Below are positions 1,610 to 24,403 of a DNA stretch of 64,000 nucleotides, in pieces (position 1 is the stretch's first letter; each line of letters opens with the position of its first letter). The stretch is from a phage. The stretch is from sequence record OZ346167.1. One strand, 5' to 3'. The notes below the pieces were generated by a model that searched no databases, had not been told where the DNA came from, and saw nothing but the letters and a program-made list of their open reading frames with translations. The position numbers and the translations under genes are program-made.

Positions 1610-3085
1610 GTGAGAAGAATGGCAGATATTACAGAAACACAAGAAAGCTTACCACCATTTAGAATGGGTGAAGTAGGTTCTTTGGGTCTGAAGGTTAAGA
1701 ATGGAAGAATCTATGAAGAACCTCGTCAGGCACTAAGGTTCCCTGAAAGTATTAAAACTTTCCAATTAATGATGCGTGACCCTGCTGTAGCAGCATCTGT
1801 AAATATTATTAAGATGTTTGTCAGAAAAGTCAACTGGAGATTCGTACCTCCAAAGGGAAAAGAGCAAGACCCTAAAATGCTTGAAAGAGCAGACTTCTTT
1901 AATTCTTTAATGGATGACATGGAGCATGATTGGGCAGATTTTATTAATTCTGTAATGTCATTCTGCACTTATGGGTTCTGTGTTAACGAGAAAGTTTATA
2001 AGAAGCGACAGGGTAAAAAAGGAAAGTACCAGTCAAAATTTGATGATGGTCTAATTGGATGGGCTAAATTACCAATCAGAAACCAATCAACACTTGATAA
2101 GTGGTATTTTGACGAAGACTTTAGAAAAGTTACTGGTGTTAGACAGAATCTGAGAAATGTTTCACATATTGCTGGAGCAATTAATCTCGGAGAAAGGCCA
2201 CTAACAAGAAAACTTCCACGAGCTAAATTCATGCTGTTTAAGTATGATGATGAATATGGAAACCCAGAAGGTCGTTCACCATTACTTAATGCCTATGTAC
2301 CGTGGAAGTATAAAGTTCAGATTGAAGAGTACGAAGCCGTTGGTGTTTCAAGAGACTTGGTAGGTATGCCAAAGATTGGTTTACCACCAGATTATCTGGA
2401 TGAAAATGCAGAACCTGAAAAAAAAGCTTTCGTACAATACTGCAAAACTGTTGTTAACGATATGATTGCTAATGATAGAGCAGGTTTAATCTGGCCTAGA
2501 TATATCGACCCAGATACTAAAGAGGATATTTTCGAGTTCTCATTAGTTTCTAGACAGGGTGCTAAAGCATACGATACAGGTTCTATTATTGACAGATATT
2601 CCAAGCAGATTATGATGGCATTTATGTCAGATGTTCTTGCTATGGGTCAGTCAAAATATGGTTCATTCTCTCTTGCAGATTCTAAGACAAGCTTACTAGC
2701 AATGTCGGTAGATATCCTGCTGAAGCAAATTAAGAATGTAATTAACCGTGATTTAGTTGCACAGACTTATGCTCTTAATATGTGGGACGATGAAGAACAT
2801 GTACAAATCACTTATGATGATATCGAAACTCCAGACCTTGAAGCAATTGGTTCTTATATCCAGAAGACTGTTGCAGTAGGTGCTTTGGAAGTTGACAAAG
2901 AGCTATCTAACAAACTTAGAGAGCATATTGGTCTTCCTCCTGCTGATGAGTCTCAGCCAGTATCTGAAAAGCTTTCTCCAAATAGCCAAAGCCGTTCAGG
3001 AGATGGTTATAAGACCGCTGGAGAAGGTACTGCAAAGACACCTTCAGCGAAAGACCCAAGCACAGCAAATAAGGCAAATAAATAA
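1610..3085 (+). CDS. portal protein
   Basis: 491-aa ORF directly after terminase and before protease/capsid genes; call by gene order and size only. Confidence 0.6.
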   Translation: MRRMADITETQESLPPFRMGEVGSLGLKVKNGRIYEEPRQALRFPESIKTFQLMMRDPAVAASVNIIKMFVRKVNWRFVPPKGKEQDPKMLERADFFNSLMDDMEHDWADFINSVMSFCTYGFCVNEKVYKKRQGKKGKYQSKFDDGLIGWAKLPIRNQSTLDKWYFDEDFRKVTGVRQNLRNVSHIAGAINLGERPLTRKLPRAKFMLFKYDDEYGNPEGRSPLLNAYVPWKYKVQIEEYEAVGVSRDLVGMPKIGLPPDYLDENAEPEKKAFVQYCKTVVNDMIANDRAGLIWPRYIDPDTKEDIFEFSLVSRQGAKAYDTGSIIDRYSKQIMMAFMSDVLAMGQSKYGSFSLADSKTSLLAMSVDILLKQIKNVINRDLVAQTYALNMWDDEEHVQITYDDIETPDLEAIGSYIQKTVAVGALEVDKELSNKLREHIGLPPADESQPVSEKLSPNSQSRSGDGYKTAGEGTAKTPSAKDPSTANKANK

Positions 3086-3585
3086 TGGCTGAAGTTATCT
3101 CTATTTCAAATGCTACACGAGTGCATTCGTATAGGGGTGTTCTTATCATTACTGACAAATTATCTGTAGAGGTTGGCTCAAGGGTCAGCCTTTCAGGTTA
3201 TGTTAGTGATGGTGGAATCTCTGACGTTTTCACTATTTGCAGGTTACTTGATGCACCAATGAGTGGAAAACCGTTTATTTCAGGAAATTGTAGTGAAATT
3301 GTTAAAATTCCATTTGACAGTTCATGCCTTTTGGGTGTAAAGTTATATAACTGCGAGAATAAACGTATCAATGTTAATAGCATTGAAGCCGCTTTCATTA
3401 CCCTCGATACTGCATTTCAATCTCCAATGACAGTTAATAAAGAAACAAACAGACTTGAATACATTTTTTCACAAAATGATTACAAAGTACTTGTCAAAGG
3501 TAAAGTATATGATATGATTGTAAATGTGGTAGATGAATCTGGTAACCATTCAACAGTCCTTAAACAAAAAGTAAGGTTTAATTAA
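3085..3585 (+). CDS. hypothetical head-module protein
   Basis: 166-aa ORF, start overlaps portal stop (translational coupling); no recognisable motif. Confidence 0.4.
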   Translation: MAEVISISNATRVHSYRGVLIITDKLSVEVGSRVSLSGYVSDGGISDVFTICRLLDAPMSGKPFISGNCSEIVKIPFDSSCLLGVKLYNCENKRINVNSIEAAFITLDTAFQSPMTVNKETNRLEYIFSQNDYKVLVKGKVYDMIVNVVDESGNHSTVLKQKVRFN

Positions 3586-3917
3586 TGGGAACATTAACTA
3601 TTGATGGTAAGAATAAAATCCTCGCCACGCTAACCCCAACGACTATTATTTTACACAATGTAGACCCAACGGCAGACCCTACAGCAAATAAGGTTACTCA
3701 GCCAGTGGCTATTTATTTTTCTGAACCGGATAATGGCTTAATTGCCTCAGAAGACACAGTTAATATTACTGTCCCAGCTTCTGCAACGGTCTCACACTAT
3801 AGCTTGTGGGATGCTAACGATAAATGCGTGGCAACTGGTGCTCTTAGCAAACCTCAATTCTTTGCTGAAGAAGGTATCTATGTTATCTCTTCAGTCTCTG
3901 TAGATTTAAACAAATAG
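3585..3917 (+). CDS. hypothetical protein
   Basis: 110-aa ORF tightly packed in head module. Confidence 0.4.
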   Translation: MGTLTIDGKNKILATLTPTTIILHNVDPTADPTANKVTQPVAIYFSEPDNGLIASEDTVNITVPASATVSHYSLWDANDKCVATGALSKPQFFAEEGIYVISSVSVDLNK

Positions 3918-3928
3918 GGTGAGTAAAA

Positions 3929-5275
3929 ATGAGTTCGAATATCTTCAGACTTGCTGATAGATTATTCAACCAACCTTTACTAGCCACTGAATCATTAGCT
4001 CACTCAGCAGCAACTTATGTGAATAACAGATTGCTGGGTGATGTCCAAGCAGCAGTAAACTTTGATAAACCTAAAGGTGAAGCAAGAAGTCTTTTAAAAG
4101 TAAAAGATGATATTGCTATTATCCCTATTATGGGTGGCTTAACCCATCGTATGACATTCATTGATGCAATGTGCACAGGTGGTTTAAGTTCTTATGAAGG
4201 TTTACGCAGAGTCTTTGACGAAGCTTTAGCAGATGAGTCAATTAAGACTATTGTTCTGCACATTGATTCTGGTGGTGGTGAAGCTTCAGGTTGCTTTGAA
4301 TTAGCACGTCACATTATGGCTTCAAGAGGCCAAAAGAAAATTATTGCTTATGTAGATGAGTTCGCTTGTTCCGCTGCATATGCTCTTGCATCTTCTGCTG
4401 AAGAAATTATTGCATCACCAGATGCAGATGTTGGTTCTATTGGTGTAATCATGGTTCATCAGGAATTAACTAAGGCATTTGAAAAGAATGGCGTAACAAT
4501 TAACGTCATCAAAGCTGGTGAGTTTAAAGGTATGGGTTCACCATTCCAAGCACTTTCAGAAGAAAGCAAAGAAAGACTTCAAAAGAGAATTAATGATACC
4601 TACGCAACCTTTACAGGTTTTGTAGCTGAATCTCGTAATCTCTCTGAAGAAGCTGTAAAGAATACTGAGGCGAATGTTTATTCTGCTCAGGAAGCTCTTG
4701 AACTTGGTTTAATTAACTCAATCATGTCTCAAGATGATTTCTTAAATTACTTACAAGGTTCTGAAGAGGCTCCTGTAAGTTTAAACGTTAACAATTCAGG
4801 TGAAGAAATGACTGAACAAGAAAAGCAAGAACTAGAAGCTTTGCGTCTTCAGGTTGCTCAAATGAAAGCTAAAGAACAGGAAGCTGCTTTGTCAGATTTG
4901 ACTAATAAGATTTCTGCTTCTGCTGAAGCTTTTGGATTTGATGCAAAAGAAGCTGCAACGACTATTTTAGGTGCTGGTCTTGATAACCCTCTGAGTGTTC
5001 TGTTTATGAATGCTATGGAAGGTGCTAACCAGAAACTTAATGAAACTATCGCGTCCCATGCTTCTGCAATGGAAGAAAAAGAATCAGAAATTACCAAGCT
5101 GAAAGAAACTGCTGGTGCTGTTCTTGAACATTCCAACGCTATGGAAGAAATGGGTAATGACGGCGAAGCTGATTTGGTTGAAGAAGAAAAAGAACCAGCT
5201 AAGAATGCTTCCGAAGACACCGCTGAACAACGCAAACTGGCTCTCCAGAATGCTCTAAAATCTCTTATCAAATAA
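3929..5275 (+). CDS. prohead protease (S49/ClpP-like) fused to scaffold-like coiled-coil region
   Basis: motif IHIDSGGGEASG typical of S49/ClpP-type serine peptidases; C-terminal third is charged, alanine/glutamate-rich (scaffold-like); lies between portal and capsid genes. Confidence 0.6.
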   Translation: MSSNIFRLADRLFNQPLLATESLAHSAATYVNNRLLGDVQAAVNFDKPKGEARSLLKVKDDIAIIPIMGGLTHRMTFIDAMCTGGLSSYEGLRRVFDEALADESIKTIVLHIDSGGGEASGCFELARHIMASRGQKKIIAYVDEFACSAAYALASSAEEIIASPDADVGSIGVIMVHQELTKAFEKNGVTINVIKAGEFKGMGSPFQALSEESKERLQKRINDTYATFTGFVAESRNLSEEAVKNTEANVYSAQEALELGLINSIMSQDDFLNYLQGSEEAPVSLNVNNSGEEMTEQEKQELEALRLQVAQMKAKEQEAALSDLTNKISASAEAFGFDAKEAATTILGAGLDNPLSVLFMNAMEGANQKLNETIASHASAMEEKESEITKLKETAGAVLEHSNAMEEMGNDGEADLVEEEKEPAKNASEDTAEQRKLALQNALKSLIK

Positions 5276-11254: not shown

Positions 11255-19270
<8,016 letters not shown>

Positions 19271-19272
19271 TA

Positions 19273-20421
19273 ATGGCAGTAGGTGAAATTCAAATTAGTG
19301 CCTTGCCTCAAGCAGCCTTACCAATTGACCTTAGTGATATCTTCCATCTTAAACAGGGTATCGAGGATAAGAGATGCACTCTTGAGCAATTACTTGCTCC
19401 ACACTCAAGCCTAAGAAATAACCCTCATGGTGTTACTAAGACACAAATTGGTTTAGATAACGTTATTAATGCTCTCCAGTTAGTTGCTGAAAATAACTTA
19501 TCAGACATTGTTAATGTAGCTGAGGCAAGAGCAAATCTACAGATTATGTCTTCAGAAGAGGTTAATAATCTTATTCAACAACATATTGATGATAAGAGCA
19601 ACCCACACAATACCACTAAGGCACAGGTTGGGTTAAGTAATGTTCAGAACTGGGTGACATCTAACCTTTATAACGAGGATGCAGATAAGTATGCTACAGC
19701 AAGAGCAGTAAATAACTTGTACAAGGCTGTTCAGGCTTCTTATCCAGTAGGTACTATCCATCTCTCTATGAATCCTGCAAACCCTTCTACATATTTAATT
19801 TGTGGAGGTACTTGGGAGTTAGTTTCAAAAGGAAGAGCACTTGTAGGTTATGATAGTGCTTCTAGGCCAGTTGGCTCAACGTTTGGTTCGCAGACTACTG
19901 CACTGACAGTTAACAACATTCCTGCACATACTCACTCAGTATACGTCACTGGTGGTGGTCACACACACGGTGCAACGGCCTCTGTCAGTGCTTTTGACTA
20001 CGGTACTAAAGGGACTACAACGTTTGACTATGGAACAAAGACTGTATCTACTTATGACTATGGTAACAGAACAACCAGTGCTGCTGGTTTAACACAAACA
20101 ACATTCATTAATCGTGGTTATGCTGATGGTGGTTGGAGAGGTTTATCAGTTGAGGGGGCAAGCTATGACCCAAGAGCTACGCTGACAACAGCTAACAACC
20201 ACACTCACTCTGTAGCAATTGGTGCGCATAATCACACAGTTGTTATTGGTGCTCACAGTCATTCTGTTGCAATTGGCTCCCACAACCACTCAGCAACAGT
20301 AACAGTAACCGGAGCAGGTGAGCATTCGCACTCTGGCACAACTGGCACAACTGGTTCTGGTCAAGCATTTAGCGTTGAACAGCCATCCTTCGTATTGTAT
20401 GTATGGCAGAGAACAGCTTAA
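19273..20421 (+). CDS. tail fibre protein (short) with C-terminal His-box repeats
   Basis: 382 aa; C-terminal repeats of HTHS/GAHNHT/GAHSHSV type and a C-terminal tail (SGQAFSVEQP...WQRTA) shared with the next gene. Confidence 0.6.
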   Translation: MAVGEIQISALPQAALPIDLSDIFHLKQGIEDKRCTLEQLLAPHSSLRNNPHGVTKTQIGLDNVINALQLVAENNLSDIVNVAEARANLQIMSSEEVNNLIQQHIDDKSNPHNTTKAQVGLSNVQNWVTSNLYNEDADKYATARAVNNLYKAVQASYPVGTIHLSMNPANPSTYLICGGTWELVSKGRALVGYDSASRPVGSTFGSQTTALTVNNIPAHTHSVYVTGGGHTHGATASVSAFDYGTKGTTTFDYGTKTVSTYDYGNRTTSAAGLTQTTFINRGYADGGWRGLSVEGASYDPRATLTTANNHTHSVAIGAHNHTVVIGAHSHSVAIGSHNHSATVTVTGAGEHSHSGTTGTTGSGQAFSVEQPSFVLYVWQRTA

Positions 20422-20424
20422 TTT

Positions 20425-20452
20425 CTTTACAGGGGCTGTATAGCCCCTTTTA
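20425..20452 (+). promoter_or_regulatory. terminator-like hairpin embedded in TTTACA promoter-like context
   Basis: TTTACA then GGGGCTGTATAGCCCC hairpin then TTTTAAG; same TTTACA-GGGGC...GCCCC architecture as the cassettes at 61525-63011. Confidence 0.45.
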
Positions 20453-20467
20453 AGAGGAAAATTTATA

Positions 20468-22819
20468 ATGGCAGATTACAAGTTGAGTGAATTAAACTCA
20501 ATTGATACAATTCGTTCAGACGACCTCCTTCATATCAGGGTTAAAAAGAGACCTGAAATGCTGGGTGATGAAGACCGTCGAATGACCTATCAAGACTTCT
20601 TAGCGTCTTTTAAACTAGAAAGATTTGTCCAGATTGCTGGTAGCAGCATGACGGGTGACTTAGGAATTGTCAAGTTACTTTATGGTGGTAAGGCAGTATT
20701 TGACCCTACAGGTTCTTCTGAGATTACTATGGGGGATGTTTTAAAGGCTTTTAAAATCAATGCAAATGGTCTTAAACTAACTATTGCAGATGCTTCAAGG
20801 TCTGCAACTGTTTATCATACTCTTAATAAGCCAAGTCCTAATGAACTTGGGATGAGAACTAATGAAGAGAATGATGCAAGATATGCAAGACTTGCTGTTA
20901 CAAACTCATTCCAAGCTAAACAGAGTGTCGTAGCAAATGGTGAGCAGTTGACACTGAAGACCCCTGCGGGTGCAAGTGAGGCATACTCTGCTATTGTAGG
21001 TCGAAATGCCAATAATGATAAAACTTGGGCTGTTGGGAATCTAACTCAAGGAAGTCTTGATGTTCATCTCGAAAACAGCAGAGGTTCAAGAATCACTCTA
21101 GGTGCAATTGTGTCTGTTAATAAGGCTCTTGCTATTACTGGACAGGTTCAACCTTCTGACTTCTCTAACTTAGATGCTAGATACTTTACTCAGACAGCAG
21201 CTAATCAGAGATTTGCGCAGCTAGTTGGTAATAACACATTCAGTGGTTTAAACACATTCAACCAACTAAGTGTTTTCAAAAAAGATGGTGAAGCAATTAG
21301 GCTACAGAATGCCAATGCTGCACAACCATTGTACATTAAGGCGATTGATAGCACAGGTGTCAACAGATGGTACATTGGTAATAGTAACGAAGGTGATAAC
21401 GTAGCTCTAGAAAACTACAAAACTAGTGGCAAGATTACTGTAGGGACAAGTGTTAATATCAATAAAACACTAACTGTAACTGGTCAAGTTCAACCTTCTG
21501 ACTGGACTAACATTGACTCTCGTTATGTTCTTATCGGTTCATACGCAAATCTTGCTAAGAAGAATGAAGCTAACACATTCACTTTACAGCAGAATATTCA
21601 ATCTGATGGTGAAGCATTAAGAATCTACAGCAAGGCTCAGAATAATTCTTCTTACATTGTTGGTAAGAATACTGATAACACAAATAAGTGGTTTATCGGT
21701 TGTGGTACTAATGGTTCTGGTACGGCATCATTCCATAACTACTTGACTGGTGCAAGACTCGATTTAGCTGACGAAATTCTTCTGTCTAAATCTCTACAGA
21801 TTACTGGACAGGTAAAACCTTCTGATTGGTCTAACTTAGATGCTAGATACTTCACTCAGTCAGCAGCTAATCAGAGATTCATGGTTGCAGGTTCTACAGG
21901 AGAAGCTACAGAGCAGAATGCAGATGGTGTGGCATGGAACGCTAAAACAGGCTTATATAATGTAACATCACCAAATGGTGATTACACATCACTTGTATTT
22001 CAAATGTATCAGGGAGTGTCCTCTTCTACTGCCTGTGCGCAACTAAAGTTCCAGTATAAAAATGGTGGGATGTGGTACAGAACATCTGTAGACAGTAAAG
22101 GTTTTGAGGCTAAGTGGTCTAAGGTTTACACAGAGGCTCAGAAACCAACCCCTTCAGAGCTTGGTGCATACACTAAAGCTGAAACTGACCAGAAGATTGC
22201 ACAGGCAGTAAGTGACTCTACAGACCTTAACAAAATCTACCCAGTAGGCATTGTAACGTGGTTTAACAGTAATGTTGACCCTAATACAGCACTGCCTGGC
22301 CTAACTTGGACGTATCTGAAGAATGGTGTTGGTAGGACTATTAGAATTGCAGCAGCAAATGGTTCAGATGTTGCTACAACTGGTGGTTCAGATTCTGTAA
22401 CGTTAGCTGTTGGGAACTTGCCTTCACACACTCACAGTTTTTCTGCTACCACTTCATCTTTTGACTACGGAACAAAAAACACTAACACGACTGGTGCTCA
22501 CACTCACTCTGTAAGTGGCTCTACTTCATCTGCTGGTAACCACAACCATTCCATTTCGTGGATTGGTCAGAACTCTACACACTACTCTGGTGGTGGTGGT
22601 GGTAGTATTGGTGTAGGACCGGGTTACACCGATGCTAACGGTGCTCACACCCACTCCGTAAGTGGTACTGCCGCTTCTGCTGGTAACCATGCTCACAGTG
22701 TTGGTATTGGTGCTCACAGTCATACAGTAAGTGGTAACACTGGTGGTACAGGTTCTGGTTCAGCATTTAGTGTTACTAACCAGTTCTACAAGTTAATGGC
22801 TTGGGTGAGAACTGCTTAA
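20468..22819 (+). CDS. tail fibre protein (long) with internal repeats and C-terminal His-box repeats
   Basis: 783 aa; three internal ITGQVQPSD(W/F)(S/T)N(L/I)D(A/S)RY repeats; C-terminal GAHTHSVSG / GNHNHS / GAHSHTVSG repeats; C-terminus GSGSAFSV...WVRTA parallels previous gene. Confidence 0.65.
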   Translation: MADYKLSELNSIDTIRSDDLLHIRVKKRPEMLGDEDRRMTYQDFLASFKLERFVQIAGSSMTGDLGIVKLLYGGKAVFDPTGSSEITMGDVLKAFKINANGLKLTIADASRSATVYHTLNKPSPNELGMRTNEENDARYARLAVTNSFQAKQSVVANGEQLTLKTPAGASEAYSAIVGRNANNDKTWAVGNLTQGSLDVHLENSRGSRITLGAIVSVNKALAITGQVQPSDFSNLDARYFTQTAANQRFAQLVGNNTFSGLNTFNQLSVFKKDGEAIRLQNANAAQPLYIKAIDSTGVNRWYIGNSNEGDNVALENYKTSGKITVGTSVNINKTLTVTGQVQPSDWTNIDSRYVLIGSYANLAKKNEANTFTLQQNIQSDGEALRIYSKAQNNSSYIVGKNTDNTNKWFIGCGTNGSGTASFHNYLTGARLDLADEILLSKSLQITGQVKPSDWSNLDARYFTQSAANQRFMVAGSTGEATEQNADGVAWNAKTGLYNVTSPNGDYTSLVFQMYQGVSSSTACAQLKFQYKNGGMWYRTSVDSKGFEAKWSKVYTEAQKPTPSELGAYTKAETDQKIAQAVSDSTDLNKIYPVGIVTWFNSNVDPNTALPGLTWTYLKNGVGRTIRIAAANGSDVATTGGSDSVTLAVGNLPSHTHSFSATTSSFDYGTKNTNTTGAHTHSVSGSTSSAGNHNHSISWIGQNSTHYSGGGGGSIGVGPGYTDANGAHTHSVSGTAASAGNHAHSVGIGAHSHTVSGNTGGTGSGSAFSVTNQFYKLMAWVRTA

Positions 22820-22826
22820 TCCCTTG

Positions 22827-22855
22827 TTGACTGATTGTTAAGATGGTGTTAATAT
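22827..22855 (+). promoter_or_regulatory. sigma70-like promoter with overlapping inverted repeat
   Basis: TTGACT-17 nt-TAATAT; 9-bp inverted repeat AAGATGGTG (22840-22848) / CACCATCTT (22873-22881) brackets the -10. Confidence 0.5.
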
Positions 22856-22898
22856 TCTTTATGGGTATTCTCACCATCTTGGCTGATGAGGTGATTAA

Positions 22899-23093
22899 AT
22901 GCCTACAATCCTAGCAATTCTTCTAAAAAATCTAGGTAGCTTCTTCTGGAAACTCATTTTATCCCTTCTAAGTGAATACATGATTGAGAAAGTGTTCTTT
23001 AAGCTTGCAAGATACCTTGCGAGTAAGACAGACACACCTATTGATGATGAGTTCGTAGATAACTTAGAAAAAGCTTTTAAGGGGGAGAAATAA
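22899..23093 (+). CDS. small membrane protein (holin-like candidate)
   Basis: 64 aa with one hydrophobic helix (FFWKLILSLL) and charged C-terminus. Confidence 0.3.
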   Translation: MPTILAILLKNLGSFFWKLILSLLSEYMIEKVFFKLARYLASKTDTPIDDEFVDNLEKAFKGEK

Positions 23094-23465
23094 ATGAAGT
23101 GGCTAGAGGAAGCTTTTAAAAATAATATTGGTGCAATTGTAGTTGGTATTTTTAGTGTTATTGGGATGTATACCACTATGCAAGTTTCAAGTGGTAAGCA
23201 AGAAGTGTCTGTCACAACAAAGTTACAGCAGCTAGATAATTATTCCAAAAGTAACTATTCAGCTATTCGTGAATTACAGTCTGACATGAGACTGATTCAG
23301 CTAGGGATGGAGAACCAGAAAGTTCAGTTAGAGAATGTTAAGGGTGAAAACGCAAAACTTACCAAAACTCTTGATAAATTCTCTGACAGTGTGAATAATC
23401 TGGCTCAATCAGTATCAGCCCTCCAAGCTATTACTGAGAAGAACACAAAGAATACTGAAAAATAA
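23094..23465 (+). CDS. membrane-anchored coiled-coil protein
   Basis: 123 aa; N-terminal hydrophobic segment IGAIVVGIFSVIGMY then coiled-coil-like region. Confidence 0.3.
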   Translation: MKWLEEAFKNNIGAIVVGIFSVIGMYTTMQVSSGKQEVSVTTKLQQLDNYSKSNYSAIRELQSDMRLIQLGMENQKVQLENVKGENAKLTKTLDKFSDSVNNLAQSVSALQAITEKNTKNTEK

Positions 23466-23473
23466 AATTTTAA

Positions 23474-23500
23474 GGCTCCTTTTGACGGGAGCCTTTTTTG
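23474..23500. terminator. bidirectional rho-independent terminator between convergent gene blocks
   Basis: GGCTCC-TTTGAC-GGGAGCC hairpin with A-run before and T-run after. Confidence 0.6.
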
Positions 23501-23503
23501 TTT

Positions 23504-24403
23504 TTACTTACCTACTGACAAAGGTGCTTCAATCTTTCCTGCATGTTTGTAGTTGTTGATGCCACCAATAAAGTCACTTGCAGTAAGATGTTTTAAGTCA
23601 CTTAAAGTGTTAAGTGGTACACCAATCTCAAAAGTAGGTGCATGGAACTCTTCGTTGTTCATCAGTTCATAAACCTGCTTCATATGATTCTGATAAACCT
23701 GAGTATCCCCAAAGACACCTATCAAGTATCGTGGAGTGTATCCAGTCATCTTACAAAGAACTTCCAGAATAAAACCGTAAGATGCAATATTAAACGGAAG
23801 TCCTAAAAAGGTGTCTACAGAACGCTGATACCATTGCAAATCTACTTCACCTTCGTTAGTGATATAAATCTGAAACAGAACATGACAAGGTGCTAAAGCC
23901 ATCGAGTTTGCTGCAATATCTGCTGCATTCCAAGCATTAACAATCATGTAGCGGTCTGTGATATCACCCTTCATCTTCGTTACTAAGGTCTCTAACTGGT
24001 CTACAACACAACCATTATGACCTTCAAAGTTTCTCCACTGAACCCCGTAGATTCTCCCACCTGCATCTTCTAACCAATCTTGTTCAGAGGAATAGTTAGA
24101 GCTTAACCAGCGTTTAAAATCATCTGACCAGATAGTCCAGCGTTCTCCATCATTTTCACCCCAAGTACGGTAACGGAGTTCACCAAGTTTATTTTCACCA
24201 TTCAGGAACCATAAAGCTTCCCCGATAACTTGCCGTGTAAACACCTGTTTAGATGTTAAGAGTGGGAAACCAGTTCGCATATCAAAACGAAACTGAGGTG
24301 GAGCAAATGCAGAGATAACATCTCCAGTTCGTGTAGTACGCAGTTCACCAACGGATAAAACATGGTTCAGGATATTTTTGTAACTTGAATCTGCTTGTGA
24401 CAT
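23504..24403 (-). CDS. thyA: thymidylate synthase (ThyA family)
   Basis: LWFLNGENK, MALAPCH (catalytic Cys), QWYQRSVDTFLGLPFNIASY motifs; Asn retained in PFNIASY indicates a dUMP substrate; adjacent DHFR. Confidence 0.85.
   Translation of the reverse strand: MSQADSSYKNILNHVLSVGELRTTRTGDVISAFAPPQFRFDMRTGFPLLTSKQVFTRQVIGEALWFLNGENKLGELRYRTWGENDGERWTIWSDDFKRWLSSNYSSEQDWLEDAGGRIYGVQWRNFEGHNGCVVDQLETLVTKMKGDITDRYMIVNAWNAADIAANSMALAPCHVLFQIYITNEGEVDLQWYQRSVDTFLGLPFNIASYGFILEVLCKMTGYTPRYLIGVFGDTQVYQNHMKQVYELMNNEEFHAPTFEIGVPLNTLSDLKHLTASDFIGGINNYKHAGKIEAPLSVGK

Follow-up and report, generated by a model that had tools for sequence, protein, structure and literature searches.

Organisation of the fibre locus

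The window analysed here is the whole 64,000-nt stretch of phage DNA (OZ346167.1). Two adjacent genes at 19273..20421 and 20468..22819 encode a short tail fibre (STF) of 382 aa and a long tail fibre (LTF) of 783 aa, the orthologues of Bas63 gp26 and gp27, respectively; these and the features within and between them described below lie on the plus strand. A DNA search matched 240 Ounavirinae records, and the locus was 98.4% identical to Escherichia phage heid. The gene order, wedge2-wedge1-platform-STF-LTF, is that of the relatives, with near-full-length identity in the synteny comparison, as for a Felixounavirus LTF/STF pair, and the neighbouring ORFs of 489, 285 and 100 aa have the sizes of Bas63 gp23, gp24 and gp25. 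STF matched Pfam Gp10_C (E 1.5e-17, aa 154-381) and the tail fiber family phrog_2097 (E 1e-126), and its orthologues in syntenic relatives carry the annotation tail fiber. LTF matched the tail fiber family phrog_4277 over its full length (1327 bits) and showed 98% aa identity to the tail fibre protein of phage heid. An earlier sequence-only reading had called both ORFs tail fibres, and these matches bear it out.

Between the stop codon of STF and the LTF ribosome-binding site (AAGAGGA, 20452-20458), a GC hairpin (GGGGCT-GTAT-AGCCCC) followed by TTTT was read from the sequence at 20432..20451. The terminator scan missed this hairpin because it has only four T, and any function of it is putative. 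In the promoter and terminator scans of 18900-23600, counts did not exceed those of shuffled sequence, with the one exception of a bidirectional terminator at 23472-23495. A tRNA scan of the whole window found none.

Receptor-binding tips of STF and LTF

The structure of the T4 gp37 receptor-binding tip (PDB 2XGF) was reportedly described by Bartual et al. in 2010. In phmmer searches, STF aa 146-352 (E 3.3e-13) and LTF aa 585-762 (E 1.1e-17) matched this structure, and the homology spans the collar and the needle in both fibres. The STF tip (aa 157-382, 19741..20418) consists of a collar, an HxH needle, a head, a return needle and a C-terminal strand, and the LTF tip (aa 591-783, 22238..22816) of a collar, a needle with six HxH motifs, the head SWIGQNSTHYSGGGGGSIGVGPGYTD and a C-terminal strand. 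STF has seven HxH motifs, starting at aa 219, 230, 310, 319, 328, 337 and 351, which are divided 2 + 5 between the outgoing and returning strands around aa ~271-305. The six motifs of LTF start at aa 654, 678, 692, 727, 741 and 750 and are divided 3 + 3 around aa 698-722. Thus the motifs flank a short distal head on both strands in each fibre, as in a gp37-type tip. STF ends in ...GSGQAFSVEQPSFVLYVWQRTA and LTF in ...GSGSAFSVTNQFYKLMAWVRTA; alignment of the two tips by BLASTP gave 30% identity (E = 1e-13), so the similarity of the HxH arrays and C-termini proposed from the sequence alone was kept on proper alignment. The proposal that the fibres share a receptor-binding module also agrees with the 2XGF matches, and the same has been described for gp26 and gp27 of Bas63 (PMC12609058).

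The needles contain several internal repeats. Gp10_C covers STF aa 154-381 over model positions 3-139, and the needle behaves as an insertion within this collar model. The outgoing needle strand of STF carries three 10-aa FDYGTK-type repeats (aa 241-270, 19993..20082), a motif also present in T4 gp37 in the 2XGF alignment, and on the return strand Tandem Repeats Finder found 3.4 copies of a 27-nt tandem repeat with 67% matches (20200..20291), which encodes HxH motifs spaced by 9 aa. LTF has a His-box direct repeat with copy a (GAHTHSVSGSTSSAGNH, 22493..22542) on the outgoing and copy b (GAHTHSVSGTAASAGNH, 22640..22689) on the return needle strand; the copies are 84% identical at a spacing of 147 nt, and their longest exact run is 14 nt. 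The heads are of different types, SWIGQNSTHYSGGGGG in LTF and FINRGYADGGWRG in STF, and the LTF head cassette is of the same type as that of Bas63.

STF and LTF are both expected to form homotrimers that terminate in a receptor-binding tip of the T4 gp37 type. After the collar domain, the chain would run out along the needle to a small head at its distal end, which would touch the receptor, and then return. The HxH motifs of both needle strands would coordinate metal ions, one site per motif; the T4-type tip is an iron-binding, intertwined homotrimer in which six His residues make up each octahedral Fe2+ site. The extreme C-terminal strand (..AFSV....W.RTA) is predicted to go back to the collar. 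Because the two tips carry different head cassettes, STF and LTF probably read different surface structures. By analogy with Bas63, which carries the same LTF head type and has been assigned an LPS-core receptor (PMC8594841), LPS-core structures are the most likely receptors.

Architecture of the LTF shaft

The LTF shaft is predicted to consist of five beta domains with short helix-turn linkers between them, three of the domains being tandem units of ~111 aa. Pfam PF20744 (gp37_trimer) matched LTF in three stretches (E 3.3e-58; 194 bits against a gathering cut-off of 21.7). Unit 1 (aa 141-256, 20888..21235), composed of a beta body and a linker, was delimited by PF20744 and by a unit HMM domain at 141-256; unit 2 (aa 257-366, 21236..21565) was delimited by unit alignment, with a unit HMM domain at 257-354; and unit 3 (aa 367-477, 21566..21898) was delimited by both unit alignment and unit HMM and matches the T7 gp17 pyramid domain (4A0T). 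The fifth shaft domain (aa 483-585, 21914..22222) is PF12604 gp37_C (E 2.7e-18; 66.3 bits against a gathering cut-off of 22.5), which is related to the fibre protein S of phage Mu and has a solved homologue in PDB 8JU3 (E 1e-16). In an AF2 model of the LTF monomer, the beta bodies had pLDDT values of 70-88 (74-85 for the unit 1 beta body) and the fifth shaft domain 64-76, and the linkers were low, with short helices. Mean pLDDT of the model was 52.7, and the tip, at ~30, was unmodelled.

A search of PDB with the shaft unit profile matched residues ~369-438 of T7 gp17, its pyramid domain (4A0T/4A0U, 7BOZ), with E 7e-5. Judged by this profile match, the PF20744 units are homologous to the pyramid domain. 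T7 has one such domain just before the tip, whereas here there is a tandem of three, after which come a Mu-S-like domain and a tip resembling that of gp37. The repeats and linkers of Bas63 have been likened to the T4 gp34 rod (PMC12609058), but PDB searches with phmmer and with the unit profile gave no sequence-level match between this rod and LTF.

Direct repeats are the linkers between shaft units

The DNA of the shaft contains three repeat copies: copy 1 (ITGQVQPSDFSNLDARYFTQTAANQRF, 21134..21213), which comprises the last strand of unit 1 and the helix-turn linker, copy 2 (VTGQVQPSDWTNIDSRY, 21476..21526) and copy 3 (ITGQVKPSDWSNLDARYFTQSAANQRF, 21800..21879). In the best register, copies 1 and 3 are identical at 73/80 positions (91.25%, E = 5e-28, 113 bits), and the top off-diagonal score in 100 codon-shuffled control sequences was 33.7 bits. 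A 93-nt extension (21121-21213 vs 21787-21879) is 86% identical. The spacing of 666 nt equals 222 codons, and recombination between copies 1 and 3 would therefore be in frame. The sequence-only reading had described a near-identical pair at 21136-21215 and 21802-21880; exact alignment confirmed a direct repeat that is in frame and conserved at the nucleotide level, but the register was off (71/80 there) and near-identity was overstated, the longest exact run being 23 nt. It had also overlooked the middle copy, which has identities of 55/99 and 51/99 nt to copies 1 and 3. With a third copy between the pair, the repeats are the ends of the three tandem units.

Among 43 aligned LTFs, the linkers are nearly invariant and the beta bodies are variable. 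Felixounaviruses are 92-98% identical in nucleotide sequence at the copy 1 linker, which stands as an island between diverged beta bodies. In our preferred interpretation, the repeats are conserved linkers between domains, and structural constraint would account for most of their similarity. Copies 1 and 3 share 20/26 synonymous codons, compared with 11.7 expected from codon usage (P = 7e-4, over only 26 codons), and this excess suggests that they have also undergone some sequence homogenisation.

It had been proposed that copies 1 and 3 are the substrate for a recurrent in-frame deletion of 666 bp, producing short-fibre variants as a mechanism of host-range variation. The frame, the 91% identity over 80 nt and the unusually similar synonymous sites of the two copies are compatible with this proposal, as are a unit number of 3 vs 4 or 5 among distant orthologues and a repeat-mediated in-frame deletion in phage mistaenkt, though at another repeat pair. 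However, the variants expected from it did not appear among relatives. The best 120 homologue clusters contained no LTF of ~561 aa or ~672 aa and no 666-nt deletion; their lengths were 777-844 aa, with one of 753 aa that aligned over 96% of the query. The deletion was also absent from 60 records sampled evenly from the 259 phage genomes with a match, in which all matches to the whole gene (54/60) spanned 2334-2550 nt. Variable repeat number is not reported across Felixounavirus in the Bas63 study (PMC12609058), and exact homology between the copies is limited to the 23-nt run. Furthermore, the deletion would shorten the fibre by two shaft domains but would not affect the receptor-binding tip, and a direct effect on host range is not expected. 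We regard such a deletion mechanism as very improbable. The DNA repeats are joints between shaft domains, not a demonstrated deletion switch.

Phages dune and DaR-2019a were considered as carriers of truncated LTFs, with matches starting from query position ~650-667, and were rejected, since their genes are full-length (2352 and 2523 nt). By sequence comparison, the apparent truncation is a module swap beginning at linker 1.

Shaft mosaicism among relatives

The identity between this LTF and those of relatives changes abruptly along the shaft. Against phage dune, only the body of unit 1 (20888-21127) is poorly conserved, at 40-57% identity, and the flanks are 92-100% identical. Against Suspvirus LTFs, unit 3 alone reaches 86-97% nucleotide identity; the neighbouring units are at 40-55% and the background is ~70-77%. 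The orthologue P0241, on a fully syntenic contig, is 1015 aa long and has five units by the unit HMM. The linker repeats coincide with the breakpoints of inter-phage swaps of shaft modules. The linkers retain homology where the beta bodies around them have diverged strongly, and for this reason they may be sites where co-infecting phages swap shaft modules by recombination; over long time scales they may also be sites of unit gain or loss. The mosaic pattern marks the places where identity changes rather than a recombination mechanism, and islands of conservation at the linkers would also be expected from purifying selection alone.

Linker similarity could be purely structural, with no role in recombination, and the mosaic could reflect faster divergence of the beta bodies, the first explanation offered for Bas63. 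The near-invariance of the linkers across the 43 aligned LTFs fits this explanation, and mutational tolerance of the beta-helix regions is one option put forward in the Bas63 study (PMC12609058). The changes in identity are, however, abrupt and, as seen for unit 3 against Suspvirus, reach the background of a different genus, and gradual divergence does not give a single unit body at 40-57% within flanks of 92-100%, as seen against dune. Selection at the protein level also leaves the synonymous excess of linkers 1 and 3 unexplained. A purely structural explanation is therefore unlikely, and we favour conserved linkers that may also serve as sites of module exchange.

Relationship between the two tips

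As judged from their divergence, the STF and LTF tips of this phage are old paralogues without recent exchange. Alternatively, the tips might resemble each other through a duplication or gene conversion that took place recently in this genome. In the genome of phage mio, a stretch of 261 nt covering the distal tip cassette is 87% identical between STF and LTF, and two cassette types are found in STF as well as LTF genes of different phages; such exchange therefore does occur in the group. In the present genome, on the other hand, the tips have only 30% protein identity, and no nucleotide match between them is better than one of 31 nt at 90%, a His box only. Moreover, the LTF cassette type of this phage was found in 99 clusters, all of them LTFs, and its STF type in three sequences, all of them STFs, namely its own STF and two homologue clusters. 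Recent duplication or conversion here is thus hardly credible, and the earlier suggestion that the module was duplicated or exchanged holds for STF-LTF cassettes in relatives, not as a recent event in this phage. The old-paralogue reading is retained.

Phage mistaenkt carries a 147-nt in-frame deletion between His-box repeats, a Suspvirus repeat pair homologous to copies a and b of LTF. Among phage records matching across the junction, this type of deletion was found only in mistaenkt; for the majority of records the match was confined to the last 180 nt and is uninformative. In T-even phages, Tetart et al. are said to have described His-box mediated duplication and swapping in gene 37 (J Mol Biol, 1996 and 1998). 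There, the variable segment of the adhesin lies between short conserved GxHxH motifs at which recombination takes place, and the mistaenkt deletion and the mio shared cassette are likewise bounded by GxHxH motifs. The events in relatives differ from those in T-even phages in that one is a deletion, not a duplication, and in that a cassette moves between two fibre genes of one virion; no such event was observed in the present phage itself. A tentative and rather doubtful extension is that the needle His boxes and the helix-turn linkers in the shaft together make up one cassette system in Ounavirinae. The distal cassette would move between STF and LTF, as in mio, JH2 and HK3, and units or heads would be lost or gained in frame, as in mistaenkt and the five-unit orthologue. 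This phage, with all the required repeats, might then make such variants at a measurable frequency.

Discussion

Our data indicate, with a probability of about 0.88, that the products of the two genes are the baseplate fibres of a Felixounavirus, both with gp37-type tips, and that the LTF has a five-domain shaft in which the direct repeats are linker joints. A shared gp37-like tip and a repeated shaft are already known from a close relative. In the cryo-EM study of Bas63 (Escherichia phage JohannRWettstein; Sci Adv 2025), collar, needle and head tips were described on gp26 and gp27, the tip fold being assigned from low-resolution density plus AlphaFold, and gp27 was found to have five beta-helix repeat domains with 'triple alpha-helix and turn' linkers (PMC12609058). 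The present phage has the same gene order, an STF of the same length (382 aa) and an LTF of 783 aa compared with 784 aa in Bas63. It also shares the tip architecture on both fibres, with seven and six HxH motifs, the LTF head type, and the five-domain shaft with helix-turn linkers. The two phages differ in the beta bodies of units 1-3, where nucleotide identity is 23-60% in places, compared with 92-98% in the N-terminus and collar, and in the head-proximal motif, which is HHxH in Bas63 and NHNH here. Sequence search of PDB found no Bas63 fibre models and returned only T4 gp37, Mu S, T7 gp17 and T4 gp10, and the PhageMaP preprint on Bas63 essentiality (PMC11482910) contained nothing usable on the fibre genes.

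The resemblance to the T4 gp37 tip extends to the collar, the FDYGTK motif, the HxH needle and the GIGAH.H motifs, all by sequence homology. The heads here are of other types than that of T4. The T4 fibre is made of four proteins, with the module on the distal one, whereas here the module is on short and long single-gene baseplate fibres. A further difference is that the two ORFs downstream of LTF belong to PHROGs families of unknown function, with no fibre chaperone and no gp38-type chaperone family detected. Some other Felixounavirus LTFs have a head that is 88-92% identical to that of T4.

For this locus itself the significance is small, as these are standard Felixounavirus fibres. In the literature surveyed, we found no mention of cassette sharing between STF and LTF or of the head-less LTF of mistaenkt. 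These side observations, a tip cassette shared by STF and LTF and a head-deleted LTF in a viable phage, modestly extend the known idea of His-box recombination. The assignment is also of value for annotation: the product of 382 aa is the short fibre and that of 783 aa the long one, names that several GenBank records reverse or replace by generic ones. Finally, the domain boundaries show where fibre modules could be exchanged for host-range engineering.

Results

The two fibre genes, and the window around them, come from the genome of a Felixounavirus (Ounavirinae), a myovirus of the Felix O1 type. Escherichia phage heid aligns with all of 19273-22819 at 98.4% identity, and 240 phage records, nearly all from Ounavirinae, match the region. 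The sequence-only reading had placed both ORFs exactly, the short tail fibre (STF) gene at 19273-20421 (382 aa) and the long tail fibre (LTF) gene at 20468-22819 (783 aa). In Bas63, a close Felixounavirus relative with a cryo-EM study, the gene order is wedge 2 (gp23), wedge 1 (gp24), LTF platform (gp25), STF (gp26) and LTF (gp27) (PMC12609058). The ORFs of 489, 285 and 100 aa upstream of the STF are the counterparts of wedge 2, wedge 1 and the platform, and STF and LTF follow in both phages. Bas63 STF is labelled 'long tail fiber protein' in GenBank. Some Felixounavirus fibre sequences also occur under implausible host or organism names ('Campylobacter phage A132', a 'Staphylococcus' record and a 'Methanobrevibacter gottschalkii' protein), probably through contamination or mislabelling. 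The gap between the STF stop codon and the LTF ribosome-binding site holds a small GC hairpin followed by TTTT (20432-20451, GGGGCT-GTAT-AGCCCC). Such a hairpin could set the STF:LTF ratio, either by attenuating read-through or by making the STF message more stable. A strong hairpin of 9 pairs, flanked by T runs on either side and resembling a bidirectional terminator, stands at 23472-23495 and separates the converging late operon, whose last ORF (123 aa) is annotated as holin in relatives, from the minus-strand thyA/DHFR operon.

The direct repeat reported within the LTF is real. The copies at 21134-21213 and 21800-21879 align over 80 nt with 91.25% identity (E 5e-28, 113 bits; the best score among 100 codon-shuffled sequences was 33.7 bits), and at a spacing of 666 nt the repeat extends to 93 nt at 86% identity. 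The description 'near-identical' was overstated, as the longest exact run is 23 nt, and a third copy at 21476-21526 had been overlooked. The three copies form the ends of three tandem units of about 111 aa (aa 141-256, 257-366 and 367-477), which are 38-45% identical to one another overall. Pfam places three PF20744 'gp37_trimer' domains over these units (E 3e-58), and their profile matches the pyramid domain of T7 gp17 (4A0T, 4A0U and 7BOZ; E 7e-5 to 2e-4). AF2 predicts all-beta bodies for the units (pLDDT 70-88), and the repeat segment ITGQV.PSD..N.D.RY... forms the last strand and a low-confidence stretch with short helices. The beta-helix domains of Bas63 gp27 are joined by 'triple alpha-helix and turn' linkers (PMC12609058), with which this prediction agrees. 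Two more linker-like motifs, KPSPNELGMRTNEENDARYA (aa 121-140) and KPTPSELGAYTKAETDQKIA (aa 559-578), bracket two further beta domains, one N-terminal and the other a PF12604 domain with homology to fibre protein S of phage Mu (8JU3, E 1e-16). Together with the three PF20744 units they give five domains, the number counted for the Bas63 gp27 shaft (PMC12609058).

Nucleotide identity profiles showed sharp mosaic boundaries that coincide with the linkers. In the comparison with phage dune, only the unit-1 body (20888-21127) drops to 40-57% identity, with flanks at 92-100%. Against the Suspviruses SUSP2, PC79-13 and mistaenkt it reaches 86-97% only over unit 3, from linker 2 to linker 3, over a background of about 45-77%. 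The profiles for Bas63 and finno show linker 1 as an island of 92-98% between bodies of 23-60%. Linkers 1 and 3 use the same synonymous codon at 20 of 26 positions, compared with 11.7 expected from codon usage (P = 7e-4), and linker 2 is at expectation. With 26 codons as a small sample, this points to some homogenisation or common origin of linkers 1 and 3 at the DNA level. The LTF repeats are best read as conserved linkers between domains, and their positions coincide with the boundaries of module swaps.

Recombination between copies 1 and 3 had been proposed as a possible mechanism of host-range variation. Such a crossover would keep the reading frame, with a single unit remaining. No such 666-nt deletion was found in the 120 best homologue clusters, of which one is 753 aa (aligned over 96% of the query) and the others 777-844 aa, nor in 60 records sampled evenly from 259 matching genomes of Felixounavirus, Suspvirus and Moogle/Mordin-like phages, where full-length matches are all 2334-2550 nt. 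All but one of the 120 clusters retain six HxH motifs. Dune and DaR-2019a were considered as truncated LTFs and ruled out, both genes being full-length. The Bas63 authors likewise saw no variable repeat number in the genus (PMC12609058). The deletion would leave the receptor-binding tip untouched and change fibre length, not specificity, and as a host-range switch the proposal finds no support in these relatives.

Shaft unit number does change over longer evolutionary distances. Among 1.84 billion representative proteins, a profile search recovered P0241, a 1015-aa LTF carrying five PF20744 units compared with three in the window, and P0242, an N-terminally truncated LTF of 901 aa with four. 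The P0241 gene (4001-7048 of a 77 kb Logan SRR22802239 contig) lies in a fully syntenic Ounavirinae locus: wedge 2, wedge 1, platform, STF (409 aa), LTF, two small ORFs, thyA and DHFR. With no more than 60% identity among themselves, the extra units are old.

The C-terminal similarity of the two fibres holds on proper protein alignment (STF aa 157-382 and LTF aa 591-783; 30% identity, E = 1e-13). Both match the T4 gp37 receptor-binding tip 2XGF (LTF E 1.1e-17, STF E 3.3e-13); the landmarks in common are the FDYGTK and GIGAH.H motifs, the collar and the HxH motifs. For STF there is a further match, to the C-terminal domain of T4 gp10 (Pfam Gp10_C, E 1.5e-17). STF has 7 HxH motifs and LTF 6, the same numbers as in Bas63, for which a T4-gp37-like tip is explicitly stated at the end of both fibres (PMC12609058). 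The shared module is thus the known gp37-type tip, a correct finding already published for Bas63. The tip of the AF2 monomer model of LTF has a pLDDT of about 30. Since a monomer cannot reproduce an obligate trimer, we rely on homology, by which the tip would be a homotrimer with metal sites.

Within STF, a 27-nt tandem repeat at 20200-20291 (3.4 copies, 67% matches) codes for HxH motifs spaced 9 aa apart. The number of HxH motifs in STF homologues is 6, 7, 9, 10 or 11, mostly 9; LTF homologues are fixed at 6. The window STF, with 7, is a minority type. The N-terminal part of STF (19414-19647, aa 48-125) contains NPH..TK.Q.GL.NV twice (aa ~49-63 and ~109-123). Numerous PHROG tail and virion families, unrelated to one another, match this stretch, which suggests a helix-turn motif widespread in fibres.

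The tip had been suggested to be a duplicated or exchanged module. In the window, the best DNA match between the two tips is 31 nt at 90%, no longer than a His box; the LTF head type occurs only in LTFs (99 clusters) and the STF head type only in STFs (three sequences, its own and two homologue clusters). For these reasons the two tips are old paralogues, and recent exchange in the window is not supported, but relatives do share cassettes. The 'GDWD' distal cassette occurs in 8 LTF and 7 STF clusters, and the T4-like 'YIEAWNGTG' cassette in 7 LTF and 2 STF clusters. In phage mio (MN850631), STF (778-1944) and LTF (1991-4339) share 261 nt at 87%, exactly the distal needle and head cassette, with collars that remain divergent. 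JH2 and HK3 likewise carry the cassette at two places per genome. For the T4-like head, protein identity between T4 gp37 and the LTFs of VpaE1, L27, REP6-12 and AYO145A is 88-92%, an indication that the receptor-binding cassette was transferred between Tequatrovirus and Felixounavirus.

Discussion

A deletion between repeats is seen at a site other than the 666-nt pair. The LTF of mistaenkt (MN850587, gene 2692-4893), a viable phage isolated on K-12, has 733 aa compared with 782 and lacks, in frame, 147 nt present in SUSP2 and PC79-13. The junction lies within a 22-nt exact stretch, CTGCTGCTTCTGCTGGTAACCA, common to two 'GAHTHSVSG.AASAGNH' His-box repeats, and the deletion removes one outgoing HxH, the entire head and one returning HxH, leaving four of six HxH motifs. 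Among records matching across the junction it is found in mistaenkt only. Sequence comparison argues that this is a real repeat-mediated deletion. The corresponding repeats in the window (22493-22542 and 22640-22689) are 84% identical, lie 147 nt from each other and match exactly over 14 nt at most. In 1996 and 1998, Tetart and colleagues reportedly described His-box recombination in T-even gene 37, which the mistaenkt deletion parallels.

Our analysis confirms the observation of shared tips and internal repeats, and supports its interpretation in part. Everything central has been described for Bas63 and T4, and the finding is therefore already known and of low interest. The sharing of cassettes between STF and LTF, the head-less LTF of a viable phage and the five-unit orthologue extend a known principle in small ways, and they are open to experimental test.
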